Source: Candidatus Poribacteria bacterium
GTDB lineage: Bacteria; Poribacteria; WGA-4E; PCPOR2b
DNA: 64,000 nucleotides
Reading direction: 5' to 3'
Assembly (NCBI GenBank): GCA_965223985.1
Contig: OZ245030.1
Span: forward strand, 3,151,720-3,215,719
Both the position numbers and the translations under genes were made by a program. This document shows positions 32,095 to 52,400 of the stretch, piece by piece. Every line of letters begins with the position of its first letter. Position 1 is the first letter of the stretch. The notes beneath the pieces are model-generated. The model was given only the letters and a program-made list of their open reading frames with translations, was not told where the DNA came from and searched no databases.

Positions 32095-32300
32095 GTCGCA
32101 CGCAGTAAACCTACAAAGCGATTCGTTATAATGCACATGTTTCGGCATACCCGCTCTACCCAACCTACAAAGACTACAAAGACTACAAAGACTATCGCAG
32201 TCGCTATTCGCTCCTTTGATCCCTACCCAACCTACAAAGACTATCGCACTCACTATTCGTTCGCTTGATCGCTCAGTTGATCTACCCAACCTACGAAAGC
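32095..32300. repeat. REP-like cluster with a tacaaagac microsatellite
   Basis: ctacccaacctacaaagactacaaagactacaaagactatcgcagtcgctattcgctcctttgatccctacccaacctacaaagactatcgcactcactattcgttcgcttgatcgctcagttgatctacccaacctacg. Confidence 0.6.
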
Positions 32301-32974
32301 TACGAAATACGGGCGACCACGACCGCGACGGGTCCTTGTTGCCAGACGCATTCGGCGTCGAACCCTGCGGCGCGGGCGGCTTCGAGTTCCTCCTCAAGCG
32401 GGAAATACGTGTCTTCCTCCGCCCATTGCGTGAAATATTCCCGTGCACGCGGTTCATCAATTCCACGCGCGACCATATGATCAATCCAGTTTCGCCACGT
32501 TGCCTCGCGTTCAGGGGGCGCCGCTGGCATCGTTGCGTCCGCATTGACGAAGGCGCCGCCAGATCGGAGCGCGTCGTAAATCCGCCGGTAGAGTGCGCGT
32601 TTCGCATCCATTGTCGGTACATGGTGAAGCGCTAATGACGCCGCGACAGCTTTGCACGGCGGCAGCGGCATGTTGAACGACGATTCGGTGAAGCGAACCC
32701 GTCCGTCAAACCGCTCGAGCCGCGTTCGTGCTTGTACTAGCATCTCGGGGTCGATGTCGATGAGTTCCACAGTTCCAGAACCGTCCGCCGAGAGAATCGC
32801 CTCGGAGAGCGCGCCGGTACCCCCGCCGAGGTCGAGGGTCAAGCCCGGCGTTGTGCGGGCAATTTCGCGCGCAGCGACAGCTAGCATCGTCTCGTAGCCC
32901 GGAATGAAGCGGCGAATCGTTTCGTCGTAAGTGCGGATTTCAATGCCGAGGTGACGGTGTACGGAGTGGTTCAT
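32300..32974 (-). CDS. Class I SAM-dependent methyltransferase
   Basis: Motif I LDLGGGTGALSEAIL and downstream acidic motifs. The ATG at 32974 (MNHSVHRHLG...) was chosen because the ORF track's longer ORF reads through from the upstream RAYT remnant. Confidence 0.65.
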   Translation of the reverse strand: MNHSVHRHLGIEIRTYDETIRRFIPGYETMLAVAAREIARTTPGLTLDLGGGTGALSEAILSADGSGTVELIDIDPEMLVQARTRLERFDGRVRFTESSFNMPLPPCKAVAASLALHHVPTMDAKRALYRRIYDALRSGGAFVNADATMPAAPPEREATWRNWIDHMVARGIDEPRAREYFTQWAEEDTYFPLEEELEAARAAGFDAECVWQQGPVAVVVARIS

Positions 32975-33300
32975 GATTATTCGTTGCCGATTTCGGTGGA
33001 AGCTGGAGTGTTCCCAGAATCTGCGTTGCCAGAATGCGCGCTCCTGTTTGGTTTTGCGTGATGTTGCAGCGGCACGTTCAAATGTGGTTTGGCAATTACG
33101 GGTGAAGTAGCTTTTGATTTGCCGCCATCGGGTTGAGAAGTCGTGGTCGTCGTCGGGCAGTAGGACGAAGGCATCGACCTCCATTTTGGACGGCGTTCCA
33201 TCGTGGAGCGGAGTGCTTGGCGTAGGAGTTTCACGTTTTCCGGTTGGCAGAGAAAAGGTTTGCGGTCATGGGTCACGACGGTGAAGAAGTAGGTTGCGCC
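32975..33300 (-). pseudogene. Decayed REP-associated tyrosine transposase (RAYT) copy
   Basis: Near-identical at DNA level to the intact RAYT at 34857-35399, but with a frameshift after ...LRQALRSTMER and a 30-bp deletion that removes the HLHTIWTLPD (HxH) motif. Its reading frame runs directly into the methyltransferase ORF. Confidence 0.7.
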
Positions 33301-33334
33301 ATTGATTTTTGGCGCGGCGGTAGTGCATGGAGGT

Positions 33335-33400
33335 CGCACCATATATATACTGTATGTTTTTCGTTTGTTAGGTTGGGTTAAGATCAACCCAACCTACAAA
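33335..33400. repeat. REP-like elements
   Basis: ttaggttgggttaagatcaacccaacctacaaaacttc. Confidence 0.5.
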
Positions 33401-33404
33401 ACTT

Positions 33405-33686
33405 CTATCTCCGTTTGTTCGATCTCGTGATGGTTACAACGACTGCCGTATCCTTCCGGCGTTCGGCTTCCTGACAACTGATGAACCTACCTGTTTTTGC
33501 ATCGCGCCCGACCTTAATGGTAGTTTCACCATGTTTCCGCCCCGCCTCGCCACCACCGTGCTTGCGAAAAACGACCTTTTCTACAGCCTGTTGAACTTGT
33601 CTTTTTGTGAGCTTCCCACGTTTGGGCGGGTACTTAACGATTCTTTCTCTAGCCACTCTAATCACCTCCCTAGGACCGTGTTTCAA
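33405..33686 (-). CDS. Hypothetical small basic protein (93 aa), second gene of a REP-flanked two-gene cassette
   Basis: Starts 1 nt after the stop of the 208-aa ORF on the same strand. Lys/Arg/Gly-rich (KHGGGEAGRKHGETTIKVGRDAKTGRFIS); no confident family assignment. Confidence 0.5.
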   Translation of the reverse strand: MKHGPREVIRVARERIVKYPPKRGKLTKRQVQQAVEKVVFRKHGGGEAGRKHGETTIKVGRDAKTGRFISCQEAERRKDTAVVVTITRSNKRR

Positions 33687-34313
33687 TCAGCGGCTCGCAT
33701 AAGTCGTCAACCATTCCGCTAGCAAGCAAGTATAATCAAATAAAATCAGCTCTTCAACCGTTAATTGATTCACCTCAGCCAGCTGAGGCAAATCCCTCCT
33801 AAATTCTTGGTAACGTTCCCAAATGATGCTTCCACTTGGAATTTTCTTACGTCTTGATGCGGTGCTCAGCCAATTTCGTACAACTGTTACAACTTCTTCG
33901 GGATTGTTGTTATGAGCCTGAATATCTTGCCCTGCAATATCCGAAATAAATTGTTGATACCGATACCGTTCTTTATCCAGTATGAGACAATTTTTCCTTT
34001 TTTGTTCCTTCAGACCAAATTTCTTTGCGCCAATAAAAACCCCCAATTCCAAAGGCATATTGAATCGAGGAAAACGTGAAGTCTCGTCTAATTCCGTTCG
34101 CGATATATCGTGAATCCCATAACGACAAGCTGCAACAATGTTATAGATTTTATCAATCCGAACTTGGCTGGCGTCTTCTTCTTCGAGGGCACAACGGGCA
34201 ATAAATCCGCAATCGTGTACAGCAAAAACCATTGCATCAAACAAAGGTTTATAGGGCACATCAATGGGACAATTTAGAAAAACATTGTGATTATAGCTTT
34301 TGGGTGAACTCAT
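33687..34313 (-). CDS. Hypothetical protein (208 aa) with a Rossmann-like (possibly TIR/SLOG-like) N-terminal region, first gene of the REP-flanked cassette
   Basis: N-terminal pattern NVFLNCPIDVPYKPLFDAMVFAVHDCGFIARCALEEE...GIHDISRTELDE...MPLELGVFIGA resembles alpha/beta nucleotide-processing folds; the assignment is weak. Confidence 0.55.
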   Translation of the reverse strand: MSSPKSYNHNVFLNCPIDVPYKPLFDAMVFAVHDCGFIARCALEEEDASQVRIDKIYNIVAACRYGIHDISRTELDETSRFPRFNMPLELGVFIGAKKFGLKEQKRKNCLILDKERYRYQQFISDIAGQDIQAHNNNPEEVVTVVRNWLSTASRRKKIPSGSIIWERYQEFRRDLPQLAEVNQLTVEELILFDYTCLLAEWLTTYASR

Positions 34314-34339
34314 GATTTGCTATGTCTGTGTGTTTAAAC

Positions 34340-34800
34340 CCATCTTGCTCCCCCCTTTTTTAAGGCGGGACTGAGGGGGTAGTAGCGTGTGTCGCGATTC
34401 GGAGCAAGTTTTTGTAGGTTGGGTAGAGTCAACGGCGAAACCCAACGTTTTTGAAACGTCCGTTCAGCCGACCGGTTAACGGCAACACGAGAACGATGGG
34501 AACGACAAAAAGGAACAAAAGGCAATGACACTATACGGGATTTGTATGATTGTGTGGAAACGCGACGCGTTTTGGTGTTCGGGAGGTTTCAAAAACGTTG
34601 GGTTTCGCTCTGTCGAACAATTCTCGCACACAATTAACGAACAGACCGATTCGTTATAATGCACATGTTTCGGCATACCCACTCTACACCAACCTACAAG
34701 AACTACAAAGACTATCGCCTTCGCTATTCGCTCCTTTGATCCTAACCCAACCTACAAGAACTGTTTGTTTGATGCCTTCAGCGCAATACGATAAGCATTA
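34340..34800. repeat. Hairpin repeat plus MITE-like and REP-like elements
   Basis: gggactgagggggt hairpin relative; then cgaaacccaacgtttttgaaacgtccg...ccgggaggtttcaaaaacgttgggtttcgct inverted termini and ctacaccaacctacaagaactacaaagactatcgccttcgctattcgctcctttgatc. Confidence 0.6.
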
Positions 34801-34856
34801 TGCGCGGAATATTATGCCATATTTTAAGGACATATACCAACGAAAACCACAAAGAG

Positions 34857-35399
34857 TTATTCTTTGCCGATGTCGGGGTTGATGGGGATTCCTGCGCCTG
34901 TGCTCCAGTTCGCGTCGTATACGCCGGCTTGGACGTAGCGGTGGAAGCTGGAGTGTTCCCAATCCTTTGGGGCGGTAACTAAGCCGTGCTTGACGGGATT
35001 ATAGTGGATGTATTCAACGTGGTTGATATAGTCTTGAGTGTCTTTGACCGTGTGTTCCCAGAATCTGCGTTGCCAGAATGCGCGCTCGTTTTTGGTTTTG
35101 CGCGATGTTGAAGTAGCACGTTCAAATGTGGTTTGGCAGTGACGGGTGAAGTAGCTTTTGATTTGCCGCCATCGGGTTGAGAAGTCGTGGTCGTCGTCGG
35201 GCAGCGTCCAGATGGTGTGGAGGTGGTCGGGTAGCAGGACGAAGGCATCAATCTCGATCGGATGGCGTTCCATCGTGGAGCGGAGCGCTTGGCGTAGGAG
35301 TTTTACGTTTTCCGGTTGGCAGAGAAAAGGTTTGCGGTCATGGGTCACGACCGTGAAGAAGTAGGTTGCGCCATTGATTTTTGCACGGCGGTAGTTCAT
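34857..35399 (-). mobile_element. Intact REP-associated tyrosine transposase (RAYT; IS200/TnpA_REP-like), 180 aa
   Basis: MNYRRAKINGATYFFTVVTHDRKPFL..., the HxH motif LLPDHLHTIW and catalytic Tyr region YINHVEYIHYNPVKHGL. The gene is surrounded by REP sequences. Confidence 0.85.
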
Positions 35400-38260
35400 G
35401 GAGGTCGCACCATTGTATTATTATGTATATTAAGATGTGGGTTTTGTGGTATTCGGAGCATTATGCCATATTATTGGGACATATATCAACGAAAACCAAG
35501 AACAACGGAAGCCAACGATCAGCTGAGCGATCAAGCGAACGAATAGGGAGCGATCAAGGGAGCGAATAGCGACCGCGATAGTCTTCTCCGTTCAGCCGAC
35601 CGGTGAATATCGACACGAGAACGATCGGAACGCGAAAAAGGAACGGGGTTGTTCGGAGTTTGGGGCGGTGTATTGCGTTTGGTATTCATTTGGTGTTCCG
35701 GAGGTTTTAAAAACGTTGGGTTTCGCTCTGTCGAACAATTCTCGCACACAATTAACGAACAGACCGATTCGTTATAATGCACATGTTTCGGCATACCCGC
35801 TTTACACCAACCTACAAAGACTACAAGAACTACCCAACCTACAGAAGCTCTACCCAACCTACGGGTTGCACGGAGGATTTGTTTTTGTAGGTTGGGTAGA
35901 GCGGGTATGGCGAAACACACGCAGTTTATTGCGAGCGATTTATGTGTTGAGGTTGTTTGGTAAATGTTAAGGTGTAGCGAAACCCAACGTTTTTGAGACG
36001 TCCGGACATCAGACCGGTTAACGGCAATACCAAAGCAATCGGAACAAGAAAAAGCAAAGGGGTTGTTCGGAGTTTGGGACGGTGTATTGTGTTTGGTATT
36101 CATTTGGTGTTCCGGAGGTTTTAAAAACGTTGGGTTTCGCTCTGTCGACCAATTCTCGCACACAATTAACGAACAGACCGATTCGTTATAATGCACATGT
36201 TTCGGCATACCCACTCTACACCAACCTACAAAGACTACAAGAACTACCCAACCTACAGAAGCTCTACCCAACCTACGGGTTGCACGGAGGATTTGTTTTT
36301 GTAGGTTGGGTAGAGCGGGTATGGCGAAACACACGCAGTTTATTGCGAGCGATTTATGTGTTGAGGTTGTTTGTGGTAAATGTTAAGGTGTAGCGAAACC
36401 CAACGTTTTTGAGACGTCCGGACATCAGACCGGTTAACGGCAATACCAGAGCGATTGAAACAAGAAAAAGCAAGGGGTTGTTCGGAGTTTGGGACGGTGT
36501 ATTGTGTTTGGTATTCATTTGGTGTTCCGGAGGTTTTAAAAACGTTGGGTTTCGCTCTGTCGAACAATTCTCGCACACAATTAACGAACAGACCGATTCG
36601 TTATAATGCACATGTTTCGGCATACCCGCTCTACCCAACCTACAAAGACTAAGGGGTTGTTCGGAGTTTGGGGCGGTGTATTGCGTTTGGTAATTATTTG
36701 GGTTGCCGGAGGTTTCAAAAACGTTGGGTTTCGCTCTGTCGAACAATTCTCGCACACAATTAACGAACAGACCGATTCGTTATAATGCACATGTTTCGGC
36801 ATACCCACTCTACACCAACCTACAAAGACTACAAGAACTACCCAACCTACAGAAGCTCTACCCAACCTACGGGTTGCACGGAGGATTTGTTTTTGTAGGT
36901 TGGGTAGAGCGGGTATGGCGAAACACACGCAGTTTATTGCGAGCGATTTATGTGTTGAGGTTGTTTGGTAAATGTTAAGGTGTAGCGAAACCCAACGTTT
37001 TTGAGACGTCCGGACATCAGACCGGTTGACGGCAACACCAGAGCGATTGAAACAAGAAAAAGCGTAAGGCGTGGTTCGGAGTTTGGGGCGGTGTATTGTG
37101 TTTGGTAATTATTTGGGTTGCCGGAGGTTTCAAAAACGTTGGGTTTCGCTCTGTCGAACAATTCTCGCACACAATTAACGAACAGACCGATTCGTTATAA
37201 TGCACATGTTTCGGCATACCCACTCTACACCAACCTACAAAGACTACAAGAACTACCCAACCTACGGGTTGCACGGAGGATTTGTTTTTGTAGGTTGGGT
37301 AGAGCGGGTATGGCGAAACACACGCAGTTTATTGCGAGCGATTTATGTGTTGAGGTTGTTTGGTAAATGTTAAGGTGTAGCGAAACCCAACGTTTTTGAG
37401 ACGTCCGGACTCAGACCGGTTGACGGCAACACCAGAGCGATTGAAACAAGAAAAAGCGTAAGGCGTGGTTCGGAGTTTGGGGCGGTGTATTGTGTTTGGT
37501 AATTATTTGGGTTGCCGGAGGTTTCAAAAACGTTGGGTTTCGCTCTGTCGAACAATTCTCGCACACAATTAACGAACAGACCGATTCGTTATAATGCACA
37601 TGTTTCGGCATACCCGCTTTACCCAACCTACAAAGACTATCGCCCTCCCTATTCGGTCGGTTGATCTACCCAACCTACAAAGACTATACGGGATTTGTAT
37701 GATTGCGTGGAAACGCGACGCGTTTTGGTGTTCCGGAGGTTTCAAAAACGTTGGGTTTCGCTCTGTCGAACAATTCTCGCACACAATTAACGAACAGACC
37801 GATTCGTTATAATGCAGATGTTTCGGCATACCCGCTCTACACCAACCTACGGGTTGCACGGAGGATTTGTTTTTGTAGGTTGGGTAGAGCGGGTATGGCG
37901 AAACACACGCAGTTTATTGCGAGCGATTTATGTGTTGAGGTTGTTTGGTAAATGTTAAGGTGTAGCGAAACCCAACGTTTTTGAGACGTCCGGACATCAG
38001 ACCGGTTAACGGCAACACCAGAGCGATTGAAACAAGAAAAAGCTAAGGCGTGGTTCGGAGTTTGGGGCGGTGTATTGTGTTTGGTAATTATTTGGGTTGC
38101 CGGAGGTTTCAAAAACGTTGGGTTTCGCTCTGTCGAACAATTCTCACACACAATTAACGAACAGACCGATTCGTTATAATGCACATGTTTCGGCATACCC
38201 GCTCTACACCAACCTACAAGAACTCAACCCAACCTACAAAGGCAACGAAAATTACAGTTT
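35400..38260. repeat. Higher-order tandem array (at least 5 copies, ~420-580 bp period) of a composite unit: a MITE-like element with ~30-bp inverted termini plus a REP hairpin pair
   Basis: Unit termini are AGCGAAACCCAACGTTTTTGAgACgTCCGGA ... TCCGGAGGTTTtAAAAACGTTGGGTTTCGCT. A perfect REP palindrome ctctacccaacctac-N23-gtaggttgggtagag and a 33-nt REP (TGTTTCGGCATACCCGCTCTACCCAACCTACAA) occur in both orientations. The unit repeats at roughly 35640, 36065, 36470, 36660, 37075, 37490, 37700 and 38040. All ORFs here are repeat translations. Confidence 0.75.
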
Positions 38261-38510
38261 TTACAGTCTATAAAAAAAGGGGTGAATTACGAAACAAGAA
38301 TAATACGTTTTATATGAATTGGGGGAGGATGTCAAGGCGGGGGGATTTTATGATTTTTTTATGAAACCGGATTCGGGGGATTGCGTATTTTTGGGTACGA
38401 TGTCAGGTTTAGGATCTCGTTGTCGATTTCGGCAACTGGGTCATGCAGAGAAACCAAGTTTCTGACAAAAACTCGGTTTCCGGTATTCCGTGAAACCTGC
38501 GAAATAAGCA

Positions 38511-38860: not shown

Positions 38861-38989
38861 TGTTATGATTTAGGAAAGGAACAACTACCAATTATGGATA
38901 GTTCAACTAAGGCTTGCGAATCTGGCAAGCGAAACAAAATCAAATTCAATCCTTCAACATACAAACATGCAAGGAGGAAACATACAGTC

Positions 38990-41900
38990 ATGTTGAGTAG
39001 AATTTCGAAAATGAGTGTTTTCGGTATCGTTGCGCTCATGCTCGTTCTCGGGCTGGCGTCGGACGATGCGCAGGGACGGGATCCGGCAGCTGGAACATAC
39101 GTGGTAACAATGCAAACAGAACCATCTGTGCTGCGCGCAGCAGACACAGCTACGGTGACGTTTACCCTCACTGTCGACCTTCGGGAAAACAAGTCTACTC
39201 AAGACCCAATCCCGGAGGATCAGGCTAACGCTGATACGGCGGAGCGTACGGTCACCATTAACATTCCGGGAGGGTCGACAGGGTGGTCGCCCAACCCGGT
39301 TGCGTTATCCGGAGAGACTGCGGTGGACCCGGGCGAGGTGAGTTTCGCTAAAACTACTGTTATCACCGACAACACTCTCGCGTGGATTTCCGGGTCTAAC
39401 GCACGGAAGCTGAATATCAAAATTGTCGCAGGAATTGACGGTAATGGTGTATATACCATCGTATACGCAGCGGCGACTGTGCCTAACCGCAAAGGCGATA
39501 GCTACAGATTTTTAATTGACAACGCAGACACCAAAGACATTCCGTATAGCGTTGATTACGCGACGAGCGGATCGGGAACGGTCACGATGAGTCCGTACAG
39601 CCCGTTGGACGCGATTGTTGGCGGCGATGCTGATGATAAAAACGCTTGGAACGGCAAATATGTTTTCAATAGCAAGACGGCGTTAAGACCGTTGAAGTTT
39701 ACTTACAAAGCGGCGGGTTCTATGCCAAAGGATTCAACCGTTTCAATAGTTATGACGGGTGGATTCAGCCTTCATGGAAAGAGCAGTTCCGTAATTTCCG
39801 TGAGCGGTTCCGGTTCTCCAGAACTTTCTACTCCCGTAGATACCGTTGTAGTAGATGAAAGTACTACGGTAGTCGCTACAGTGAAGGCAGAGGGCGGGCT
39901 GGGAGCCGGCCAGTCGATAGCCATAACCATTAGGGAGCTTGTGATGCCGGAGGTCGTAGCGGCAGCCGATGCCCCGGATACGGATAATACCATTACAGTG
40001 ACTTCTACGTCGGGTACTACGAACTTTCAAGACGATGCCCGCCCGGTTGCTATTGACAATGCTGCTGGAGATGTCGACAAAGGTTTATTCGAGTTCTACA
40101 CGACTGCAGCGCCCGGGACCGGTGAAATGACGATTAATTCTGGCGGCGACCCGATTCAAAACATGCGCGTCGTGGAAGGCACTGACCTCGGGACATTGGT
40201 ATTTGGAATTACGGGCACGGACGGTATGGGACCGGACGCCAAATTTCAGATTAAGGTTCCGGGCGCCCCTTGGCCCGAGCCTATTAAGGCGTCCGGCACG
40301 ATTGGCGTTGTTGCCGATTCGGAAGCCGCCGGACACACGGCGAATGCGGAGATTGGCACTGGCGGTGCGGCTCGCACACTCAGCGGAAGCCTTACAACTA
40401 ATACACTTCAATCTGGTACAAATAATCCCGAGGCTAATGCAAATTTGAACGATACTGATAACGGCGGGATTACGTACCGAGCCGGCGCGATATCGGTACA
40501 CGGCAAGCATGAGTTCATGCTTTTGACCAGTTCCGGTCCGCACGGCGCCACATTGAAAGAGAGGACCGGCGGGGACGGGGCTGACGCGTACCCCCGGTAC
40601 ATTGAAGTCACCGCGAAGCACGAAAGCGGTACGTTCGTCGTTAGAGAGGGCGGATCGCCGTTAGTGCAGTCAAAACCCGCGAACGAGCACACGCTCCAGT
40701 TAGTCTTTAAAGCCACTGGCTACATGCCGGCAGGGATGGTTGTGTTTAGGTTCCCGGATAGATGGAAAAGTCCTCGCCGTGACGTCGCTCCGCCGTTTGA
40801 AGTGGGAGAGGTGAGGTTTAGCAATAACGCGACGTTTATTGTCAACACCGACGGGACCATCACTGCGACGGGGGACTGGCGAGATGAGGAAATTGTAGTT
40901 ACCTACAGAGGCATGGTTCCGGGCGAGGCGGGTACCCCGCCCGAGTCACACACTTTTACCGTGGATGCATCATCGTTCGGAGGTGATGCTAGCTTCCCGG
41001 CCCCGGCGGCCCGACCGGCTGCTTATTCCCATACGATTGGTCCCAATCTCGCGGCGGATGGCAGCGGCACACTCGCGATTGAGCCGAAGAATGCGAATGC
41101 CGGCGAGACGATTAATTTGAATATAACTTACACAGCCGCGGGCACGATGGAAGATGGATCAGTTGTTGAGGTTACCATCCCCGAAGGCTGGCCTGATCTT
41201 GATGCGCCTGGCACATCAGTCGAGATCGGCGCAGAGGGCATCGTGGCAACCTTGAATGAGTCGAAGAGGACGCTGACCGCTACAACTGTTGATGATATGG
41301 TCACTGATTCCAAACTCGTGTTCAACGTCACGGGCGTTACAGCGCCGGCTGTCGGCAGAGGTTACCAGTTCACCGCGCAATCAAAATCGCACGGAGAACT
41401 AAAGAGCCTTTCGTCAAGGCAAATCTCCGGTGCAGTCATCAATATCAGCAACGTGGCTGCTGGTTCCGCCCTGCTTACGCTAGTGAGGGAAGACGGAACG
41501 ATGGCGGAATCTGCCGAACCCCTGGATTCGTTTGAAACGGCCAAAATCACTTTTACGGTTGGCTTGGCGATGCAACCCGGGGCGGAGGTTAGGGTCACGG
41601 TTCCGGATGGCTGGACGAATGAACCTTTCCAGGACAACGGCATGCCGCGTACGAGCGGTGAGGTTACGCTTGAAGGGAAGGCGGATCTTAGCGTCGAGGG
41701 AAGCGTGCTGATCGCCAAGGCGAACGCTCAGATTAACCCTGGCGAAACAGTGACGTTCACCTACCATAAGCCGACCGCGCCTGAAGGCGAAACAACATCG
41801 TCTTTCGATACACAGGCGTCAATTGTTGAAGGCGGGGGTTTACTGGCGGTTGCAAATCAGCAAACAACTGTGGTCGTTAGAAGCAAGGTCACCGCGTTGA

Positions 41901-44900
41901 CGCTTACCGCCGAATCGGCGACGAGCGTGTTCGTAGGCGATCCGGTCAAACTCACCGTTAGCTCGGATGCGCGTGCTCCGGTTCGCGGTCTTGCGGTAAC
42001 GTTAGCGACCGATCCGGCTGATACAGGGATGTTCTCCCTGACCGAAGACGGGACAGCCACCACTTCGGTGACGATTGAGGATTCGGCTACTACGATGTCC
42101 ACCACGTTTTATTACATAGGCCCAAGTTCCATTGATACGGCATCTGTCGATGTCGAGTTGACGGCGACGGCTATGGTGGATGGCGAAGCCGTTGCATCTG
42201 ATCCCGTGGAAGTTAATGTCAGGTCCACGATTAGCATGCTGCAGGTTAACGGCATGCATGATGATCCGGAACCGGTGGAGGTTGGTGCCGCAATTACGGT
42301 GACAGCGATCGGTAAAGACGGCAGAGCCACCGTAACGGTAACTGACGCTGAAGAAGAGGCGGTCGAGTCACTAACAAATCTTGGACTTGATGTCGACTCC
42401 GATGCTACTGACGTACCGGCAGGTAGTGTTGCTTACAAGCGTAAAATTGAACTGCCGGACGATCTTGCCGAAGGCGATTACACCGTAACCGTGACTATTG
42501 ACGGCGTTTGGTTGCCAATAGAGATCAGTGTGGTGGCAGCCAGAGCACAGGTTACCGAATTGACGCTCACCGCGTCAGCGGATAATTTCTTCGCGGGCGA
42601 GTCAATCACAGTCACTGTTGCATCGGATGCTCGTGCACCCGTTGACGGTCTTGAGGTGACATTGTCGACAGATCCCGCAGATTCGGGAACGTTCTCCGAT
42701 CCCGAAAGCGAGGAGACCCTCAAGGGAGGGATGGTGACGATTGAGGATGCTGCGGATTCAATGTCTGCAGATGTTAATTACACCAACTCTGCGAGGGGGA
42801 CTTTCATGCTGACGGCGACAGCTATGGTTGATGGCGAGGCCGTTACATCTGACCCGTTGGAAGTTACGGTCAACCCCACGATTACCGTTCAGGTTAACGG
42901 CATGGACGCACCGGAAGCGGTGTTGCCCGGCGCCACAATTAGTGTGACGGCGAGCGGTAAAGCAGGCGGAGGCACCGTAATGGTAACCGACGCTGAAGGC
43001 GAAGCAGTCGAGTCATTAACAGGGCTTGGACTTAATGTCGACGCCGATGCTGCTGACGTTCCCGAAGGCAGCGTTGCCTACATGCGCGACATTGAACTGC
43101 CCGCGGATATTGCTGACGGCACTTACACAGTTACCGTGACAATTGGCAGCGAGTCGGTGCCAGTGATGTTGGAGGTCATGACACCCACAGAACCGGTCAC
43201 CGCTATCGCGATTGTACCGGATCCGACCAGCGTGTTTATCGGCGAGGACATTGCCGTCTCCGTGACGCTGTGGAGCGGTGCCGAAGAAGGGGCTGCCTCG
43301 GCAGCTATGGTCATCAACCTGACGGATGGCGAAGCCGGCGGTAGTTTCACCGATACCGAAGGCAATGCTATCACTTCGGTCACTATAGCCGTTGGAGGTT
43401 TCGACGCGTCTGCGAAATATAGCAATGCCAGCAGAGGCGAAATCACGCTGACCGCGACGGCAGCCGATGAGGCGTTGGAACTTGAGCCGGCAACCGCCGA
43501 TGTCACGGTCAAGCCCTCGATTTACAATTTTGAGGTTAACGGCACGGACGAGCTAGGCCCGCTGACGGCTGGCGTCACAATTACTGTGTCGGCGACCGGA
43601 AAAGAAGGTAAAGCCACCGTAACGGTAACTGACGCGGACGGCGAAGGGGTTGTGCCATCGAAAGGGCTTACAGGACTTGATGAAGAGCCCGATGAAGAGG
43701 GCAACGTTGATTACACGCGTAAATTTGACCTACCGGTCGTTCTTGCCGATGGCATTTACACAGTTACGGTTACCATTGCCGGCGAGACTGCCGCAATGGC
43801 AATCGAAATCATAAACGACCAATCAAAACCGGCGTTGAGCAACCAGAAGGTATTGCCCGACACGGTAGCGAGCGGCAGTGTGATTACGCTTAGAATCGAC
43901 GTGAGTTCTAATGTGCCTAATCCCGAGTTGTCAGTGATGGCGGATGTCAGCGAGATTGATGCCGACCAAGCCGCTGTTCAGTTGACGAAACTGCCCGGGA
44001 CGGAGAGCACCTATGCCAACATCTACGTGGTCAAAAACAGCGACCCGCAAGACGATGGCGAGAAGACCATCACGTTCATGGCGACTGATAGGATTGGCGG
44101 CGCAAGCGAAATGACTGTGTCCACGTCCTTGAAGAACGACGTTACGCCTCCGGTGCTGAGCGATCCGACCGCTATGCCTTCACCAGTGGTGAACGGTATG
44201 GACGTTACCATTTCGGTTAGCAGTGAATCCGGTCTCACGGTCACGGCAGATGCTTCCGAAATCGGCGGCGGCATGGTGACGCTGACCGAGGGTACGGTTG
44301 ACGACGGTATGGATGCCAACGGCAACGGTAATGGTATGGATGCCAACGGCAACGGTAATGGCATGGATGCCAACGGCAACGGTAATGGTATGGATGCCAA
44401 CGGCAACGGTAATGGCATGGATGCCAACGGTAACGGTAATGGCATGGATGAAGATATGGTCGGCACGGGCATGTATAGCAGCGACCCGATCACAGTCGCC
44501 GTTACTGAAGGTGGCGATCAGACCATCACCGTCAAGGCGACCGATGCCTCTGGTAACGAGGCTACCATAGACGTAACCGTCACGGTTGAGGTGCACGAGG
44601 TGACAAGCGTTACTTTCGTTCGCACGGGCGATACGGTTACGGTAACCACGATGGGCACCGCTGGATTGAAAGCGGAGTTCAGCGTCTTCAATGAAGCTAT
44701 GAAGATTATCGGTGAGAAGGCGATGACGGAATCGGATGATGGCGGAAGCTATACAGGCAGTTTCATCATTGTTGTAGACGCCCATCCCGCTGGTGAGTAT
44801 TGGATTTCTAGCAGCGTGGGTACTGCTGCCAGTATGACCGCAGAAGGTGCACTCACGATCGACCACGGGGCGCATTTCACCCTGTCAATCGGCGCGGGTA

Positions 44901-46102
44901 CGCATATAATCCATATCCCGTTAGATGTTAAGCAGATTAACGGCGAAGATGCGTTGATTGACACCGTCGGCGACCTATACGATGCGCTCGGCGAAGCGGT
45001 CAACTACATCATTACGGTCGGCGACGACGGTGGATGGAAGACTTACCTCGGCGATATGAGCGCGGGCACCGCAGCGGACGCGGCAATCGGCGACGATACC
45101 GGTTTGATTGTGGTGATGTCCGACGCTAAGACGCTTGAACTCGTTGGCGATGCGCTAGGTACCGCCGGCGCTTCACAAATTAACATTGACGTGGGGAACA
45201 ACCTCGTCGGTGTACCGCTTGATCCGGTGGTGGATATGATGATTAGCGCCGCGCTGGTCGAAGGTGTTAGTTCAATCTCGGTCTCCAAAGCCGATGGAAT
45301 GGGATTCCACACGATTAGGGAACCCGGCGACGACGGCGACGGTCCTGTCATAGGCGGCGTCGGCTATCTAGTTTCCTACATTGGAGCGGAACCAGCCAGC
45401 ATCCCGATATTCGGTTCAGCATGGGAGAACGACGGATCGGTTTCGGCAGCTCCTGCAATCGCCTTCAGCGGTTCGCAGACGCCGGTGCTGTATGTTGAGG
45501 GCGGCGTTATGGACGAGTTCGACATGTTGTCACGAGTTCCTGAACTCCGTGTCACTGTAAAGAACCTGTCTACAGGCGCTTCGCTCGACACCGTTCTCGG
45601 AACGGAGCAGTCTGCGACAGCGTACAGCGGTACGTTTGTTGAATTGAGCCGCCACGCAGCGAAGGCTGGCGATGTGCTGGAGATAGTAGCGCATTCACCG
45701 AACCCGTACGTTGGTGTTCGACCGGTTCAGCAGATTGTTGTTAGCGCGGAAGAGGTGTTGACGAGCCGTATCAGCTTGCCCGACCTGGAAGTCTACGAGA
45801 TTCCGTCGGAGAGCGAGCTGTTGGCTAACTACCCGAATCCGTTTAACCCTGAAACGTGGATTCCGTACCGGTTAGCGAAAGCTGCCGAAGTGACGTTGGA
45901 TATTTATGACACCAACGGACGCTTGGTACGGACCATTGATATCGGCTTCAAACCAGCCGCTGTGTACGAATCACGTGCATCAGCGATTTACTGGGATGGC
46001 CGCAACAACTACGGTGAACGCGTTGCCAGTGGCACGTACTTCTATCACTTAACTGCGGGCGATGATTATGCATCAACTCGCAGAATGGTGATCCTGAAGT
46101 AA
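38990..46102 (+). CDS. Giant secreted repeat protein (2370 aa) with Ig-like repeat modules and a T9SS-type C-terminal sorting domain
   Basis: AAGGAGG RBS then the ATG at 38990 (12-nt spacing) and signal peptide MLSRISKMSVFGIVALMLVLGLA. Four ~210-aa internal repeat modules (TALTLTAESATSVFVGDPVKLTVSSDARAPV... / TELTLTASADNFFAGESITVTVASDARAPV...). C-terminal CTD NYPNPFNPETWIPYRL...LDIYDTNGRLVRTI...WDGRNNYGERVASGTYFYHLTAG...MVILK. Confidence 0.85.
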   Translation: MLSRISKMSVFGIVALMLVLGLASDDAQGRDPAAGTYVVTMQTEPSVLRAADTATVTFTLTVDLRENKSTQDPIPEDQANADTAERTVTINIPGGSTGWSPNPVALSGETAVDPGEVSFAKTTVITDNTLAWISGSNARKLNIKIVAGIDGNGVYTIVYAAATVPNRKGDSYRFLIDNADTKDIPYSVDYATSGSGTVTMSPYSPLDAIVGGDADDKNAWNGKYVFNSKTALRPLKFTYKAAGSMPKDSTVSIVMTGGFSLHGKSSSVISVSGSGSPELSTPVDTVVVDESTTVVATVKAEGGLGAGQSIAITIRELVMPEVVAAADAPDTDNTITVTSTSGTTNFQDDARPVAIDNAAGDVDKGLFEFYTTAAPGTGEMTINSGGDPIQNMRVVEGTDLGTLVFGITGTDGMGPDAKFQIKVPGAPWPEPIKASGTIGVVADSEAAGHTANAEIGTGGAARTLSGSLTTNTLQSGTNNPEANANLNDTDNGGITYRAGAISVHGKHEFMLLTSSGPHGATLKERTGGDGADAYPRYIEVTAKHESGTFVVREGGSPLVQSKPANEHTLQLVFKATGYMPAGMVVFRFPDRWKSPRRDVAPPFEVGEVRFSNNATFIVNTDGTITATGDWRDEEIVVTYRGMVPGEAGTPPESHTFTVDASSFGGDASFPAPAARPAAYSHTIGPNLAADGSGTLAIEPKNANAGETINLNITYTAAGTMEDGSVVEVTIPEGWPDLDAPGTSVEIGAEGIVATLNESKRTLTATTVDDMVTDSKLVFNVTGVTAPAVGRGYQFTAQSKSHGELKSLSSRQISGAVINISNVAAGSALLTLVREDGTMAESAEPLDSFETAKITFTVGLAMQPGAEVRVTVPDGWTNEPFQDNGMPRTSGEVTLEGKADLSVEGSVLIAKANAQINPGETVTFTYHKPTAPEGETTSSFDTQASIVEGGGLLAVANQQTTVVVRSKVTALTLTAESATSVFVGDPVKLTVSSDARAPVRGLAVTLATDPADTGMFSLTEDGTATTSVTIEDSATTMSTTFYYIGPSSIDTASVDVELTATAMVDGEAVASDPVEVNVRSTISMLQVNGMHDDPEPVEVGAAITVTAIGKDGRATVTVTDAEEEAVESLTNLGLDVDSDATDVPAGSVAYKRKIELPDDLAEGDYTVTVTIDGVWLPIEISVVAARAQVTELTLTASADNFFAGESITVTVASDARAPVDGLEVTLSTDPADSGTFSDPESEETLKGGMVTIEDAADSMSADVNYTNSARGTFMLTATAMVDGEAVTSDPLEVTVNPTITVQVNGMDAPEAVLPGATISVTASGKAGGGTVMVTDAEGEAVESLTGLGLNVDADAADVPEGSVAYMRDIELPADIADGTYTVTVTIGSESVPVMLEVMTPTEPVTAIAIVPDPTSVFIGEDIAVSVTLWSGAEEGAASAAMVINLTDGEAGGSFTDTEGNAITSVTIAVGGFDASAKYSNASRGEITLTATAADEALELEPATADVTVKPSIYNFEVNGTDELGPLTAGVTITVSATGKEGKATVTVTDADGEGVVPSKGLTGLDEEPDEEGNVDYTRKFDLPVVLADGIYTVTVTIAGETAAMAIEIINDQSKPALSNQKVLPDTVASGSVITLRIDVSSNVPNPELSVMADVSEIDADQAAVQLTKLPGTESTYANIYVVKNSDPQDDGEKTITFMATDRIGGASEMTVSTSLKNDVTPPVLSDPTAMPSPVVNGMDVTISVSSESGLTVTADASEIGGGMVTLTEGTVDDGMDANGNGNGMDANGNGNGMDANGNGNGMDANGNGNGMDANGNGNGMDEDMVGTGMYSSDPITVAVTEGGDQTITVKATDASGNEATIDVTVTVEVHEVTSVTFVRTGDTVTVTTMGTAGLKAEFSVFNEAMKIIGEKAMTESDDGGSYTGSFIIVVDAHPAGEYWISSSVGTAASMTAEGALTIDHGAHFTLSIGAGTHIIHIPLDVKQINGEDALIDTVGDLYDALGEAVNYIITVGDDGGWKTYLGDMSAGTAADAAIGDDTGLIVVMSDAKTLELVGDALGTAGASQINIDVGNNLVGVPLDPVVDMMISAALVEGVSSISVSKADGMGFHTIREPGDDGDGPVIGGVGYLVSYIGAEPASIPIFGSAWENDGSVSAAPAIAFSGSQTPVLYVEGGVMDEFDMLSRVPELRVTVKNLSTGASLDTVLGTEQSATAYSGTFVELSRHAAKAGDVLEIVAHSPNPYVGVRPVQQIVVSAEEVLTSRISLPDLEVYEIPSESELLANYPNPFNPETWIPYRLAKAAEVTLDIYDTNGRLVRTIDIGFKPAAVYESRASAIYWDGRNNYGERVASGTYFYHLTAGDDYASTRRMVILK
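44306..44440 (+). repeat. Five near-identical tandem copies of a 27-bp unit (third-position T/C alternation) inside giant gene 1, encoding (MDANGNGNG)x5
   Basis: gg(t/c)atggatgccaacggcaacggtaat x5, in frame. Confidence 0.8.
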
Positions 46103-46469: not shown

Positions 46470-49400
46470 GTGTTTAACATCATGAGTAAGGGAAAACTCG
46501 TTTGGTTTCTGATTTTGGTTACACTTGCGAGTGGTTTGATGATGAGCGTAGCGCAGTCGGTCCACGCCCAATCGGTGAGCTTGTTCATATTGAATGGTAC
46601 GCTCACGGATGCGGATGGCGTTGCGCTGGTAGGGTACACCGTGGAGGCGCCAATTGCTGAAGAAAGCACATTTGGGAGCGGCGTATCTATAACAGACGAA
46701 CAAGGAAATTACTCGATCGAGTATAACGACTTGAGCGGAAGAGTCAGCGTTGGCGACTCAATTGAGGTAATTATCAAAGACCCTGACGGGAACGTTGTAG
46801 GGGAAACGTCGTATACCGTTACTTCTGCGGATATATCGCCTCGAATTGGACGGGCGACGCACGATATCGCAATTCAGATGTCAGGGCTGACGCTTGATTT
46901 GATTAACGTTCAGTTGCCTGCGGATGGCGAATCGACGGCGGAAATAACCGTTTCGATCGAGTCGGGCGATGGGCCGGTCATCGGTGACACGGTGACAATA
47001 ACGGCTGACATGGGCAGCGTCGGCGAGGTTACGGATAACGGCGACGGGACGTATACGGCTGTGTATACGGCGCCCGCGTTGGTTATTAATGAACCGGCGA
47101 CGGATACGATTACGGTGAGTTCTGACACAACAGGCGATTCGGTAACCGCGGTAATAACGTTGGAGCCGGTTCCGACGGACATTAGAGTATCGGTCGAGCC
47201 GAGCGCATTTATAGCGGGCTCGGGCGAGACTGGCGCCGTTTCGATTACAGTGAACCGCGGCGGCAACGCTGTGGTGGACGCAGACATTTCATTGGTAGTG
47301 AGACGCGCGGATGGCGGTGCCGACAGCGGCGCGGCTACTGATGTGACGAACAACGGTGACGGCACGTACAGCGCGACATTTACGGCTCCGAACACCGCGG
47401 GACAGATTGATTTTTCCGCAACGGACGCAGTTTCCGGCGCGAGCGGGATGGCGTCAGTTAATGTGAAGGCGGGACCTGCGGCGGCAATTTCGGTGACGGC
47501 AGCGCCCACGTCAGTTTCGAGCAACGGACGCGCAGTAATCACTGCAGCGGTCGCGGATGCATCGGGTAACGGTGTCGGCGGATTGACGCTTAGCCGTACG
47601 GCAGAGAGCGGCACGGTCGGCGAATTCAGCGAAGGGTCTACAGTTGGGAGTTACAGCGCGGCATATACCGCGGGTACGGTTGAGGCGGAAGGAGGGGATA
47701 CCGTAACCGTTAGCGTCGACGACCTATCCGGTCAGGTGACGATTAACCTTACACCGGTTCCGCCGAAGGCAGTAGAAATTCTTGTAATCACAGGCACAGT
47801 GAACAAGCAAGACGGTACGGGACCCGTCAGCGGGGTGAATGTAGAGGTTACAGTCGGCGACATGACGCAGCCACCGGCGCAGACGGACAGCAATGGAAAC
47901 TACACCGTCACCTTCTTCACTCCGGGCGGCGTTGCGGCACGCGAAGGCGAAAGCGTTACTGTTGTTGTCACGGACGACGCCGGCGAGGAACGCGGACGGG
48001 ACGAATCGGTATTGACGCGAGAGGAGCTAGGCGAGGGGAATTCCGCGGATATTGAGCGCAATGTGAATACCGATATTTTGGCGAGAACCACGTCGTTGGT
48101 GGTGACCGGTTCGGTGTTCCGCGAAGAGAGCGAGGTGCCGATTGACGACGTGTTTGAGATTACAGTGATGAACACGACGCGCGGGACGGAAATGTCCGGT
48201 ATGACGGACGAGAACGGAATGTATGTTCTCACCTTCTTCGGCACAGACGTTGTTGCTGAGACGGGAGACGAGATAGTAGTGACGGCTTCGAGAGAGGGAA
48301 GCGAATGGAGCAGTCCCCCGCATTCGTTGTCTTCGGAAGACGTTGAAGCGGGCAGAGCGATGGTGAACGTACCGACCGACATCAAGGCGTCAGCCCTAGC
48401 GCTTGTGGTGACGGGTAAGGTTCTCTTTGACGACGGGACCATTGCAGTTGGCGCCGGTGTGACCGTAACTTCGATTAACGATGGACGCGGACTGGAAGCG
48501 ACAGGCGAGACTAATGCAGATGGGATGTATTCCGTGACCTTCTTTACAGGTGATGTCGTTGCGGAAACTGGAGACGTGATTGTCGTCACAGCCGTGCACG
48601 ACGGCGACGCGGTCGGCAGCACGGAACGTACGCTCTCATCGGCTGAAGTGGACGCACAGCGCGCGGAAGGCGTGGATGTGGTTACCAGTATAAAAGCGTC
48701 AACGACGACGTTAGCGGTGACTGGTACGGCGTACTACGAAGGCAGCATGATCCCCGTCGGCGGCGGACAAACCGTGACTGTCGTGAACAACATGAACGGG
48801 ATGGAGTCCACCGGGACAACGGAGGAAGACGGTACGTTTGTCGTTACGCTCATAGCCATTGAGGGGGTTGCCGCGGAGACGGGCGACACGCTGACCATCA
48901 CGGTGACAAGCGAAGCGGACGGCAGCGGCAGCATTGAACATACGTTATCGGCGATGCAGATTGATGCGCAGCGCGCTATGGTTGATGTTCCGACGAACAT
49001 TAAGGCGACCTCATCAACGTTCGTTGTGTCAGGTACGGCATACCTTGAAGATGGGGTAAGCGGTGCGCCCCACGATTTGACCGTTAAAGTCATGAACGAA
49101 ACGCAGGGGATCAATGCGGAAGGCGTAACCGTTCCGGGCGGCGGATACATTGTGACGTTCTTGGAGACCGATGCAGCGGCTGTGAAGACTGCGGATGAGT
49201 TGACATTCGACGTGCTTGTAATGGCGGCAGACGAGACGCCCGTCGGGGAAACTTCCGTTACGCTCTCATCGGCTGATGTGGTTGCGCAGCGGATTGACGG
49301 CATAGATATCACGACGAGCCTCAGGGCTGACCCGACCAATGAGTTTGTCGTTTACGGTACGGTTCGAGATCCGTCGGGCAACATCGTTGGGGCGGGAGTA

Positions 49401-52400
49401 AAGGTGCGCGTCACCCTCGGCGAGCAGGCTGCGAGGGAACAGGAAACCGAAGCAGACGGTTCGTATCAGGAGACCTTCTTCATGCCGGGCGAAACGGATG
49501 CGAGCGTTTACGACACCGTGGTAATTCAGGCGGTCGACCGCAGCACCGGCGATTCGGCGTTTGAATCCATGCAGTTGGCTTCGCACCACGTGTTGGCGAA
49601 GCGTCTTATGTTTAACGTGATGCTGGTTCCGGACGATGAACCCCCGGTCGCCGTGGCAGCAGTGAGCCAGCGGTTCCTTGACACCGAAGAAGTCTCGACG
49701 TTCGACGCGAGCGGTTCAACCGACAACGTCTTTATTGACACGTACGTATGGGATTACGGAGACGGCACGAGCGGCAGCGGCGCGAAAACGACGCACGCTT
49801 ACGACCGAGCGGGACTGTATGTTGTAACGCTTACGGTTACCGACCTTGCCCGAAACGCGACTACGGTCTCACGCGAAATCTTTGTGAGCACGGTACGGCT
49901 CGGCGGAATTTCAATCAACACCCGGCACGCGCGAGAGGTTCTTGACCAAATCATCGGCTTGGCAATCGCTAAGACCGACCTTGCTCAGCAGATGGGAACG
50001 GAAGCGCTCTTGCAGATGATGCGCGCTAATCCGGCGATTCAAGCGGCTGTGGCTGAAGCGATTGGCGGGGCATTACCGCCCGGCTTAATACCTATGCAGC
50101 TACTCAGGGAAAATCTGCCGCTGATTTTCGAGCAGTACGAAAACATTGACTTGGAAAACTTCGGCAACGCAGTGACCGCACGTGTCGACGCGAGCGGCGG
50201 TATCCTGGGATCAGCAACTCCGGGATTCGGCAGAGTCGTGACCGGCGAGAAGTTGGACCTCTACCTTGCGACACCGCGTGCAGATGTTGGCAGTGTCACG
50301 TTTAGGTTCGACGAAGCTACAACCGATGCGGACGAGGTCATCGACAGTCTGCCGCACACGTTCCAGTTGGAAGAGGAGCAAGCGATTCTACTGCTGCCCT
50401 CATGGCCCGGCGTGCGGGATGGAATGGACGGCGTGTTCTCAACGGTGACGTTGATGTTGGCGTCTGAAGAGTTGCCGTCGGCATACCACAATCTAATTTC
50501 GAGAAATGCCTGGTCATACCGCGAAACGAGCGATTATCAGGCTGCGTCCATGAGTCCAAGGACGATTAACGGAAAGATTGTATGGGATGTCCAAGCGGAC
50601 ATTGAACCCGGAAAGATATATTACTACTATTACGCAGTCGAACTCGCGTATCCCGTCACACTGAATTTGGGCGAGGGTCAGGAGAGCATGGAACTCTCGC
50701 AGTACGCATTGCCAGACCCGCGCAACCTTCAAATTCAGGATCGCGGCATAGCTGAGGCGGTATTCACACCCGAGCTTCAGGAAGCGATTGCACCGCTGCT
50801 GAACCCGATACTTGCGGGCATTATCAGTGGACAAGCTGTTACGTTCGAGGATGTTATCGCGAGCGTGACGCCCGAAGCGTGGGTGAACCTGTTGGGCGCA
50901 GCATTGAATTCAGCAACTCCGCTTCTTGAAGAGATTTCAATGACGATGGATACGCAGATGATTTCCGTGTTCACCGTTCCGCTGGTGAACGAAGCGCAGT
51001 CGCTCTGGCACACGAGTATTGATTTATCAGTGTTCCCGGACGGCGTTCACACAATTGATGCGAACGCGTTTGATTCGCTTGGAATTCAGATAGATAACCG
51101 ACCGGTTTTCGGTAAGACCTTCACGTTGGATCGGACTGCACCAGTTTACGATGTGTCGGCTGCACCGGCTCAGAATTCGTCGATGTATATGCGCGACGAC
51201 GGCGTATTGATTGCGACAGGATTGCCGCCCGCTGGCGAGGGCAGCCCGATGGCGACGCTTCAACTGATGTCAAGCCCGAACGGCGATGTGAGCGATGCGG
51301 CTGAAGGGTTGTACCAGATTATTCGGCACAGCGATGACGCCGTTGAACAAGCGTCACAAACTTGGGTCAACATTTTCGCGAGCGAATTGGCACCGATGTT
51401 CCAAGGGCTAACGCCTGAAGACATCACCGCATTCTTGGTTACGTTCCCGAATCTAGCGACGTTGAACGCGCCTCTGAGTTTGGACGCGCCTGGGATTGAG
51501 ACGTTCCTTCCGGAACAGATGGAGATGTTGATTCGCGGTGCTAACAGCCAGCCCGAACTGATTGTCGGAGAATACGGGCTGCGTTTCATCGCACGGGATT
51601 CCGTATTTAATATGTCAACGGATACCGCGCCGATACGGTTGAACATTGTTCCACCGGATGCGGATACCGCGATGGTTGTGCGGATATCGCTCGGCGATTG
51701 TAACGGCGACGGCGACTCAGACGACCTGTATGAGACAGGCGCTCCTGCGGACATGATTCTGTTCTCGGACACGCCGAATGTGGTGTTGACCGCAGAGATT
51801 ATGAAACAGGTTCACCCGATAACCTCAATCCTGTTCCAGTATAGGATGGGGGATGAAGGCGAATGGATGGATGTCGGTACACTTGACGCAGATATGGTCG
51901 CCGGCGCTGCTGTCGGCTCACAGTATGATGCGGCTTGGAGCATTGACAACTTGGGCGCGATGATTCAGGCAGGTATGCCGGTAATGGTTCGCGCGGTTGT
52001 CACGAATGCACTCTCCATTTCTGATACTGAGGCTGGCGAAGCTGCAATAGCGGTGAAAGACCATCCGTGCCCGATCGAAACTGAAGTTCACGACCTTGCA
52101 CACAGCGTTACCGACCGTAACCCCGACAGCAACGCGCCGCTGGGCGCGATTATGCTTCAGGCAATCACCCGCGAGCTAACCTCACCTCCTTCGATGAGCG
52201 TAGTTTTTGAGGCGCGCCGTATGCAAGGTGAGGAGTGGATGTCAGTCGGCGAAACGGCGATAGCGGATAGCGTTGTCGAAGAGTCTATCACCGATGCACT
52301 TGAAGAGGTGTTGGAGGAGGTTATCGACGGCGAGCAGACCGCAGTGTTAGTTCCGACGCGGCGTGTATGGTCGTTTGAACTTGATAGCACAACACTAGAA

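Follow-up and report, generated by a model that had tools for sequence, protein, structure and literature searches.

What is the small gene pair that lies between a decayed and an intact copy of a REP-associated tyrosine transposase (RAYT; REP, repetitive extragenic palindromic) in a Candidatus Poribacteria genome, and what might it do there? The pair occupies positions 33405-34313 of a 64,000-nt stretch of contig OZ245030.1 (hereafter the window) and runs along the minus strand, with a gene for a 208-residue protein (33687-34313, ATG start) followed by one for a basic partner of 83 residues (33405-33656, probable GTG start). An earlier note on this DNA had singled it out as a two-gene unit between the two transposase copies, possibly a defence or addiction module, and both open reading frames (ORFs) are indeed intact and co-directional. 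The analysis presented here supports that general reading, with the function itself put forward conditionally: the pair would represent a widespread two-gene conflict module of toxin-antitoxin type, probably acting in abortive-infection defence, a proposal for which we weigh belief and doubt about equally. TIR-class effectors and two-gene conflict modules as such are well known. By profile comparison, the 208-residue family, the 26-residue peptide tag that accompanies it and the fusions of this tag to CD-NTase and ThsB-type proteins are covered by none of Pfam, NCBIfam and PADLOC-DB v2.0; no description of them was found in the literature searched, an earlier one being possible.

Sequence searches of Pfam, NCBIfam, PADLOC and the Protein Data Bank (PDB) returned nothing significant for the 208-residue protein. 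Neither cassette protein matches a PADLOC-DB v2.0 model (E<=1) and, in keeping with the initial impression that the two are unlike the housekeeping genes around them, neither finds a housekeeping family in Pfam, PADLOC or NCBIfam. AlphaFold prediction from an alignment of 87 sequences, representatives of clusters at 50% identity, yielded a confident model of the larger protein (pLDDT 95.4, pTM 0.91); an earlier AF2 model built from a 25-sequence alignment (>=73% identity) was unusable (pLDDT 47). The predicted architecture features a five-stranded α/β domain at residues ~8-135, its modelled strands (10-14, 38-40, 65-69, 108-113 and ~132-133) flanked by helices, followed by three long helices (138-207) that have no Pfam match. 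Foldseek places TIR-STING and the SPARTA TIR at its top ranks, and the best viral fold match is a Cap12/Pycsar-TIR protein. Structure prediction and fold search together support the suspicion of a Rossmann-like, TIR- or SLOG-like N-terminus and assign the predicted fold to the TIR-DrHyd-SLOG (TDS) class, in a Cap12/PycTIR-like form; Burroughs et al. reportedly treated this class in 2015.

Ten residues are invariant throughout the 87 sequences (N14, R52, D69, S71, N85, E89, G91, S124, D125 and G128), all of them kept by the window copy, and P16, F17, H68, P82, R83, F84, M86 and P87 are each shared by at least 90%. The polar N14 follows strand 1, and Glu89 sits within a PRFNMPLELG motif; on the model, the invariant residues fall largely at canonical TIR-DrHyd-SLOG active-site positions, and the active site looks intact. 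By sequence, the nearest family is PF10137 (Cap12/Pycsar TIR effector), which 32 of the 87 members match below its gathering score of 24.7 bits (best E 4e-4); residues 259-311 of P0236 score 18.3 bits, and the window protein itself shows no PF10137 match at E<=1. No other family of the TIR-DrHyd-SLOG class was matched by the 87 members.

The comparison with Cap12 and Pycsar TIR effectors (TIR-STING Cap12, PycTIR) is instructive in both directions. In the model, the proteins share a TIR-like, flavodoxin-type fold and the conserved Glu of an N-x-x-x-E-x-G motif, located where the helix that follows strand 3 begins and represented here by the invariant N85, E89 and G91; this Glu we take to be the catalytic residue of the Cap12/TIR-STING NADases. 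The family profile aligns PRfNmplElGlflGa with PRDNVVFEFGLFLGA of SfSTING Cap12 (7un8). In contrast, the scores of the 208-residue family stay below threshold, the protein lacks a STING, SAVED or cNMP-binding sensor and carries a 70-residue three-helix domain instead, and its constant companion is the 26-residue peptide module rather than a cyclase: no cyclase is encoded in the window, and one adjoins the 208-residue gene only at loci L032, L033 and L035. The wider TDS class comprises Rossmannoid N-glycosidases and sensors (PMC9503650, section 3.3.3), and the predicted three-layer α/β sandwich, the five-stranded sheet and the polar N14 after strand 1 all agree with it, whereas the sequence is not assignable to any named TIR, NDT/DrHyd or SLOG family of Pfam.

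The same class also harbours enzymes of nucleotide metabolism, and the protein could in principle be a nucleoside 2-deoxyribosyltransferase, an Rcl/MilB-type hydrolase or a LOG-like salvage enzyme with a housekeeping role, next to which the small ORF would be incidental. We find this barely credible: none of the 87 members matches PF05014 (nucleoside 2-deoxyribosyltransferase/DrHyd) or the LOG models vs. the 32 that match PF10137, the partner is conserved across phyla, and the family is patchy, multi-copy, plasmid-borne and low in GC, with TIR_2 fusions and defence neighbourhoods to its name. Its size is considerable, with 7,505 matching clusters at 90% identity and 3,207 at 50% identity (E<=0.001), 684 of the latter at E<=1e-30. 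The closest homologues are all from Candidatus Poribacteria; further members populate Acidobacteriota, Latescibacterota, Gemmatimonadota, Desulfobacterota, Chlorobium, Geomonas, Planctomycetota, Verrucomicrobiota, Cyanobacteria and Proteobacteria, with inter-phylum identities of 54-62%. Some feature an extra N-terminal TIR_2 or SEFIR domain, and one protein so extended adjoins a Lamassu system.

Several of these traits bear on mobility. The family is found on 17 alphaproteobacterial plasmids, always labelled 'hypothetical protein', with one Sphingomonas plasmid copy directly downstream of TniA/B/Q transposition genes, and in the window the 208-residue gene has a GC content of 40.7% vs. 51.7% for the window as a whole. 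Since plasmid carriage, the transposition-gene neighbour, a patchy spread over many phyla, two copies in one genome, low GC and extra partner copies near some loci all point the same way, we conclude from the comparative sequence data that the cassette is mobile. The genome with two copies is that of OY764061.1, a Poribacteria chromosome on which paralogous cassettes (L001, L010) lie ~9 kb apart at ~204-223 kb; one of them is located after an HTH and M78 peptidase (CapH/CapP-like) pair and before a PLD-SNF2 helicase, and its partner is shortened to 51 residues with the module kept. A separate group of family members (P0124, P0139 and P0173) shares a conserved additional C-terminal domain of ~100 residues (...FVILxRSxxxYLQ...LEYQEGSLDEHYxC...) without Pfam match, and loci of such extended members (L091, L092) include a DUF7002 gene.

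Is the small downstream ORF a gene at all, and where does it begin? The earlier note had described a directly abutting basic protein of 93 residues. Its basic nature holds (pI 11.4 for the 83-residue product), but its length and the abutting start do not. The frame extends up to a TTG at 33686 (33405-33686, minus strand; 93 residues) next to the stop codon of the 208-residue gene; this is probably not the true start, and the GTG at 33656 is likelier because it is preceded by a strong Shine-Dalgarno element (AGGGAGGTG, 33663-33671, minus strand), has been called as the start in L006, a near-identical contig (83 residues), and lines up with ATG or GTG starts in all Poribacteria homologues. The Shine-Dalgarno element lies between the 208-residue stop codon and the GTG, inside what is now a 30-nt intergenic gap, and AGGAGGTG is also conserved across Poribacteria loci; elsewhere the gap varies from an overlap (TAATG in L087) to ~60 nt. 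Over 35 distinct Poribacteria copies, codon-position entropies of 0.73/0.44/1.19 and a 41% share of synonymous changes among differing codons indicate that the small ORF, module included, is a real protein-coding gene.

The partner has no Pfam, NCBIfam, PADLOC or PDB match. It carries two short elements, Module A (residues 4-29, ERIVKYPPKRGKLTKRQVQQAVEKVV; 33570-33647, minus strand; hidden Markov model (HMM) match E 1.8e-14) and Motif B (residues 49-76, VGRDAKTGRFISCQEAERRKDTAVVVTI; 33429-33512, minus strand), and a six-frame search of the window with the module HMM gave a single significant match, the partner itself. In ~44 Poribacteria loci the 208-residue homologue is followed immediately by a gene that always starts with ERIVKYPPKRGKLTKRQVxRAVEKVV, the module thus being N-terminal, and whose remainder differs by locus. 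In other phyla, including Acidobacteriota, Gemmatimonadota, Latescibacterota, Desulfobacterota, Chlorobium, Geomonas and Cyanobacteria, the module (consensus RxVKxPPKxGxLTxxxVxxAVxxV, 26 residues) resides in a 50-130-residue ORF just upstream, often at the C terminus and beside low-complexity basic sequence. On plasmids of Sphingomonas and Rhizobium, small genes that abut the larger one upstream are annotated in RefSeq.

That the two proteins form a recurrent pair is borne out: the module adjoins a 208-residue homologue on the same strand at 76 of 86 loci from many phyla, a count that is no clean estimate of sensitivity, as the HMM was iterated on these same loci (a first pass seeded solely from Poribacteria had already found 51) and missed the alphaproteobacterial plasmid partners, which were recognised by eye. 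All 87 module matches lie on the strand of the 208-residue gene. Judged from these alignments, the module is the only constant feature of the partner. Its Arg and Gly are invariant in the module alignment (A3), and it finds no match in Pfam or the PDB; a SHOCT-like assignment, suggested by one weak match, was dropped after a relaxed Pfam scan of 34 modules gave inconsistent results and no SHOCT and a PDB profile search came back empty. A database search with the module profile recovered at least 26 small proteins and does not constitute a census of fusions.

The bodies to which the module is attached in Poribacteria are strikingly diverse. One is a DncV-like CD-NTase, which exceeds the Pfam threshold and matches the PADLOC cyclase at E 1e-127; another is a ThsB-type TIR (locus L025; Pfam E 7e-21). 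The others comprise DUF2188, a body with weak similarity to GIY-YIG, a 649-residue stretch of TPR repeats, proteins of 420-600 residues without an assigned family and short tails. At L032, L033 and L035 the tagged cyclase and the 208-residue gene stand by themselves as a pair, and their surroundings offer no other candidate effector. DUF2188 is said to have been linked to defence by Burroughs and Aravind (J Bacteriol, 2020). Such arrangements recall minimal type I CBASS or Thoeris, in that a signal generator, CD-NTase or ThsB-type TIR, adjoins a TIR-like protein that would be a putative NADase effector. They differ in that the generator is N-terminally tagged, which implies a physical tether and not a diffusible signal alone, in that the 208-residue protein has no known ligand-sensing domain and in that most family members, including the one in the window, come without cyclase or ThsB.

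In light of these fusions, a different arrangement deserves attention, one that we consider unlikely though credible: the 26-residue tag would be a portable docking element that plugs interchangeable components into a common Cap12-like TIR protein serving as accessory or hub and not as toxin. The 208-residue protein would be recruited to a tagged CD-NTase, ThsB TIR, DUF2188 or TPR protein or to bare peptides, where it would read out or tune nucleotide signals; in a stronger variant, the TIR-like enzyme would covalently modify the tag, for instance at its invariant Arg, much as Cap2 and Cap3 act on CD-NTases. We know of no precedent for protein modification by TIR-class domains, which speaks against the stronger variant. 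What recommends the docking arrangement is that the same module, its Arg and Gly retained, and an effector 70-80% identical are paired with very different bodies, two kinds of signal-generating enzyme among them, that TIR-DrHyd-SLOG domains can be sensors as well as enzymes (PMC9503650) and that ancillary regulators common to CBASS and Thoeris are known (bioRxiv 10.64898/2025.12.03.692087). Yet in most phyla the partner is no more than a basic peptide of 50-80 residues, which leaves nothing to regulate, and the strict, active-site-like conservation fits an effector equally well. Were this arrangement true, it would amount to a previously unrecognised tag-and-hub immune architecture, one where a physical tether, and not just a diffusible signal, would connect generator and effector.

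A further precedent for short shared modules, offered as a lead only, comes from the adaptor and effector-associated domains of NTP-dependent conflict systems that Kaur, Burroughs, Iyer and Aravind are said to have described, and which reportedly pair homotypically and accompany STAND or other NTPases. As there, a short module recurs on unrelated proteins beside a constant core component; here, in contrast, the tag measures only ~26 residues and the pair is not constantly accompanied by an NTPase. No counterpart of the tag turned up in the 208-residue core protein, where no search was aimed at one.

Returning to the conflict-module reading that we favour, we propose that the 208-residue protein is a toxic effector, a TIR-like N-glycosidase that when active would hydrolyse NAD+ (most likely) or another nucleotide. 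The basic partner would bind it through the 26-residue module, probably on the three-helix C-terminal domain, and this binding would either keep the effector off or couple it to a trigger. The interchangeable remainder of the partner, be it a basic disordered tail, the RDAKTGRF motif, DUF2188, TPR, ThsB TIR or CD-NTase, would then provide regulatory or sensing input. It is the co-occurrence of module and effector that suggests their contact. In most phyla the small partner gene precedes the larger one, to which it is tightly coupled, and this fits the classical antitoxin-toxin layout; the Poribacteria order is reversed.

This proposal has a parallel in those type II toxin-antitoxin systems whose toxins target NAD, for example RES-Xre and MbcT-MbcA. 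Likenesses include the small, tightly coupled two-gene unit, the partner-first order in most phyla, the patchy, multi-copy occurrence on plasmids and transposons and a toxin predicted to act on NAD+ or nucleotides. Differences are the TIR-like fold here vs. an ART-like RES domain there, the lack of a recognised DNA-binding domain in the partner, the restriction of conservation to a 26-residue module borne by very different bodies and the reversed gene order in Poribacteria. One could go further and see a classical type II toxin-antitoxin pair that merely stabilises mobile DNA or genomic islands, with no part in phage defence. We hold this quite unlikely: antitoxin-first tight coupling in most phyla, carriage on plasmids, conjugative as well as mobilizable, and next to transposition genes, and extra partner copies near some loci would all suit it, but the CD-NTase and ThsB TIR fusions and the restriction-modification, Abi and Lamassu neighbourhoods suggest immunity, the two roles not being mutually exclusive. 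The extra module-bearing partner genes lie near cassettes in L024 (5627-7968, three in a row), L006 (5664-5915), L011 (~776-853), L051 (3142-3438) and L026 (~1510-1594), and by analogy resemble orphan antitoxin or cassette arrays.

The genomic context of homologues, scanned within ~2.6 kb, fits a conflict system. The idea that homologues would turn up in defence islands agrees with neighbours and fusion partners rich in defence genes, as described without a matched control: Eco57I-like methylases, AbiJ_NTD4 with DUF7014, PD-(D/E)xK proteins, DprA/PsyrA-like proteins, AAA_15/21 ATPases, an HTH and M78 peptidase (CapH/CapP-like) pair, a PLD-SNF2 helicase and Lamassu. Some Poribacteria loci contain a separate upstream HTH_37 gene or the HTH and M78 peptidase pair. 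An Eco57I-like (type IIG/IIL) methylase of 900-990 residues lies upstream on the same strand in L015, L017, L019, L022, L023, L024, L032, L033, L035 and L051, ending ~160 nt before the cassette in several loci and up to ~2 kb before it in others; methylase and cassette either form one larger system or merely occupy orthologous islands.

It is also important to note what weighs against the conflict-module reading. Toxicity, NADase activity and binding are predictions, and, because neither protein matches a PADLOC, Pfam or NCBIfam model, the pair is without experimental precedent. No DNA-binding domain such as type II antitoxins typically possess can be recognised in the partner. A module is not detectable at 10 of the 86 loci, nor does the TIR_2 fusion locus that was examined (P0236, L090) have one. 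Neighbours are also often housekeeping or metabolic genes, such as EPSP synthase and PhyH, the window's own cassette is flanked by genes other than defence genes, and no homologue of the 208-residue protein was found among 50,697 phage records. The window copy, moreover, may be poorly expressed, because a 425-nt REP block separates its ATG from the conserved leader.

If the 208-residue protein does prove to be a TIR-like NADase held by a peptide tag, a common new family would join the catalogue of defence and toxin-antitoxin systems, and the pair would offer a minimal, tractable model of a TIR-class effector switched on by a peptide and not by a nucleotide sensor. The sponge-symbiont CD-NTase and ThsB variants that carry the tag would then suggest signalling enzymes hard-wired to their effector. 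For Poribacteria and other uncultured phyla, the family also helps to annotate the defence repertoire.

How, then, does the cassette relate to the transposase copies and repeats that enclose it? Directly 3' of the operon's stop codon lies a REP palindrome (approximately 33366-33400) that forms a hairpin of -20.1 kcal/mol (z -4.25) without a T-tract and belongs to repeat family D7, and on the 5' side a block of ~425 nt (34336-34760) contains repeats of REP families D2, D5, D6 and D8, so the noted REP elements on both sides are present. Upstream of the cassette stands the intact RAYT, an IS200-like Y1 transposase (34857-35399, minus strand; PF01797, Y1_Tnp, E 1.9e-8). Downstream is the decayed copy (approximately 32994-33342, minus strand), 95-97% identical to the intact one and carrying +1 and +2 indels, a 30-nt deletion that takes the HUH motif and a 99-nt deletion that takes the catalytic-Tyr region. 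An IS200-like Y1 transposase with flanking REP palindromes qualifies the surroundings as a REP/RAYT element, which the cassette genes themselves are not.

Among the cassette loci compared, only three, those of the window, L006 and L007, have a RAYT and the REP core close to the cassette. The mobile-repeat island assumed at the outset is therefore real in the window but limited to these close relatives, and REP/RAYT bracketing is a property of this lineage and not of the cassette family; REP/RAYT as a general mobiliser of the cassette was rejected on the same grounds. Synteny with the window extends to both sides of the cassette in L007 (OZ240245.1), which carries it at the same site with 86% DNA identity, next to one intact RAYT in the position of the window's decayed copy. 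To the question, raised in the earlier note, whether the cassette is absent at the orthologous site in relatives, L007 answers in the negative, and because of its presence there the cassette is not a recent insertion in the window. In L006 the cassette is 96.6% identical and a RAYT lies directly upstream. A shared xanthine-dehydrogenase/ADH island with L002 had also been considered for the window and was rejected, the true orthologous site being that of L007.

In a three-way alignment, the REP block of the 5' leader proves to be inserted ~14 nt upstream of the ATG of the 208-residue gene and to be absent from L006 and L007, where the conserved leader (34761-34856, minus strand) directly adjoins the ATG. 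A short imperfect repeat is common to the two junctions of the block, reading AAACAAACAGAC at one and AAACACACAGAC at the other. The leader contains a promoter-like TTGGTA-18-TGgCATAAT at 34840-34811, such matches being no commoner than in shuffled expectation; likewise, the site count of the promoter and terminator scan was not above that of shuffled sequence. Displacement of the leader raises the further prospect that the family is functional elsewhere and the window copy an inert remnant, silenced in a zone of REP/RAYT recombination. The decayed neighbouring RAYT, the rearrangements of L006 and L007 around the cassette and the lack of nearby defence genes would accord with such a fate, which we nonetheless deem highly improbable: both ORFs are intact with all ten invariant residues present, the reading frames are kept at 96.6% (L006) and 86% (orthologous L007) identity, and a REP element in the 5' untranslated region need not block transcription.

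The remaining observations concern motif B and the wider window. Motif B (VGRDAKTGRFIxxKEAERRKxTAVVET) is also found as free-standing proteins of 42-45 residues (P0297-P0300) in defence-gene neighbourhoods, and related [RK]Dxx[ST]GRF motifs recur in the partners of other phyla. At L093 (446-577) and L094 (3001-3135) the free-standing protein is followed by one of 151 or 182 residues that has hydrophobic, possibly membrane-spanning stretches and no Pfam match. Also encoded at these loci are a TIR_2 protein, a fusion of HTH and M78 peptidase or HEPN_AbiV, and the two small proteins may constitute a separate small-protein module of defence islands.

Within the window, the remnant of the decayed RAYT now shares an open frame with the N-terminus of a class I SAM methyltransferase ORF (32300-33184); in L007, the intact RAYT and the methyltransferase are separate genes. 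On the other side of the cassette, positions 35500-38500 form a 3-kb composite REP array with a higher-order period of ~394-415 nt, in which a 300-nt unit occurs seven times and a 168-nt unit ten times; related repeats are found again at ~59200-60850, and the REP core GTAGGTTGGG is present 40 times in the window. The array is followed by two giant ORFs on the plus strand, at 38894-46102 (2,402 residues) and 46470-55571 (3,033 residues).

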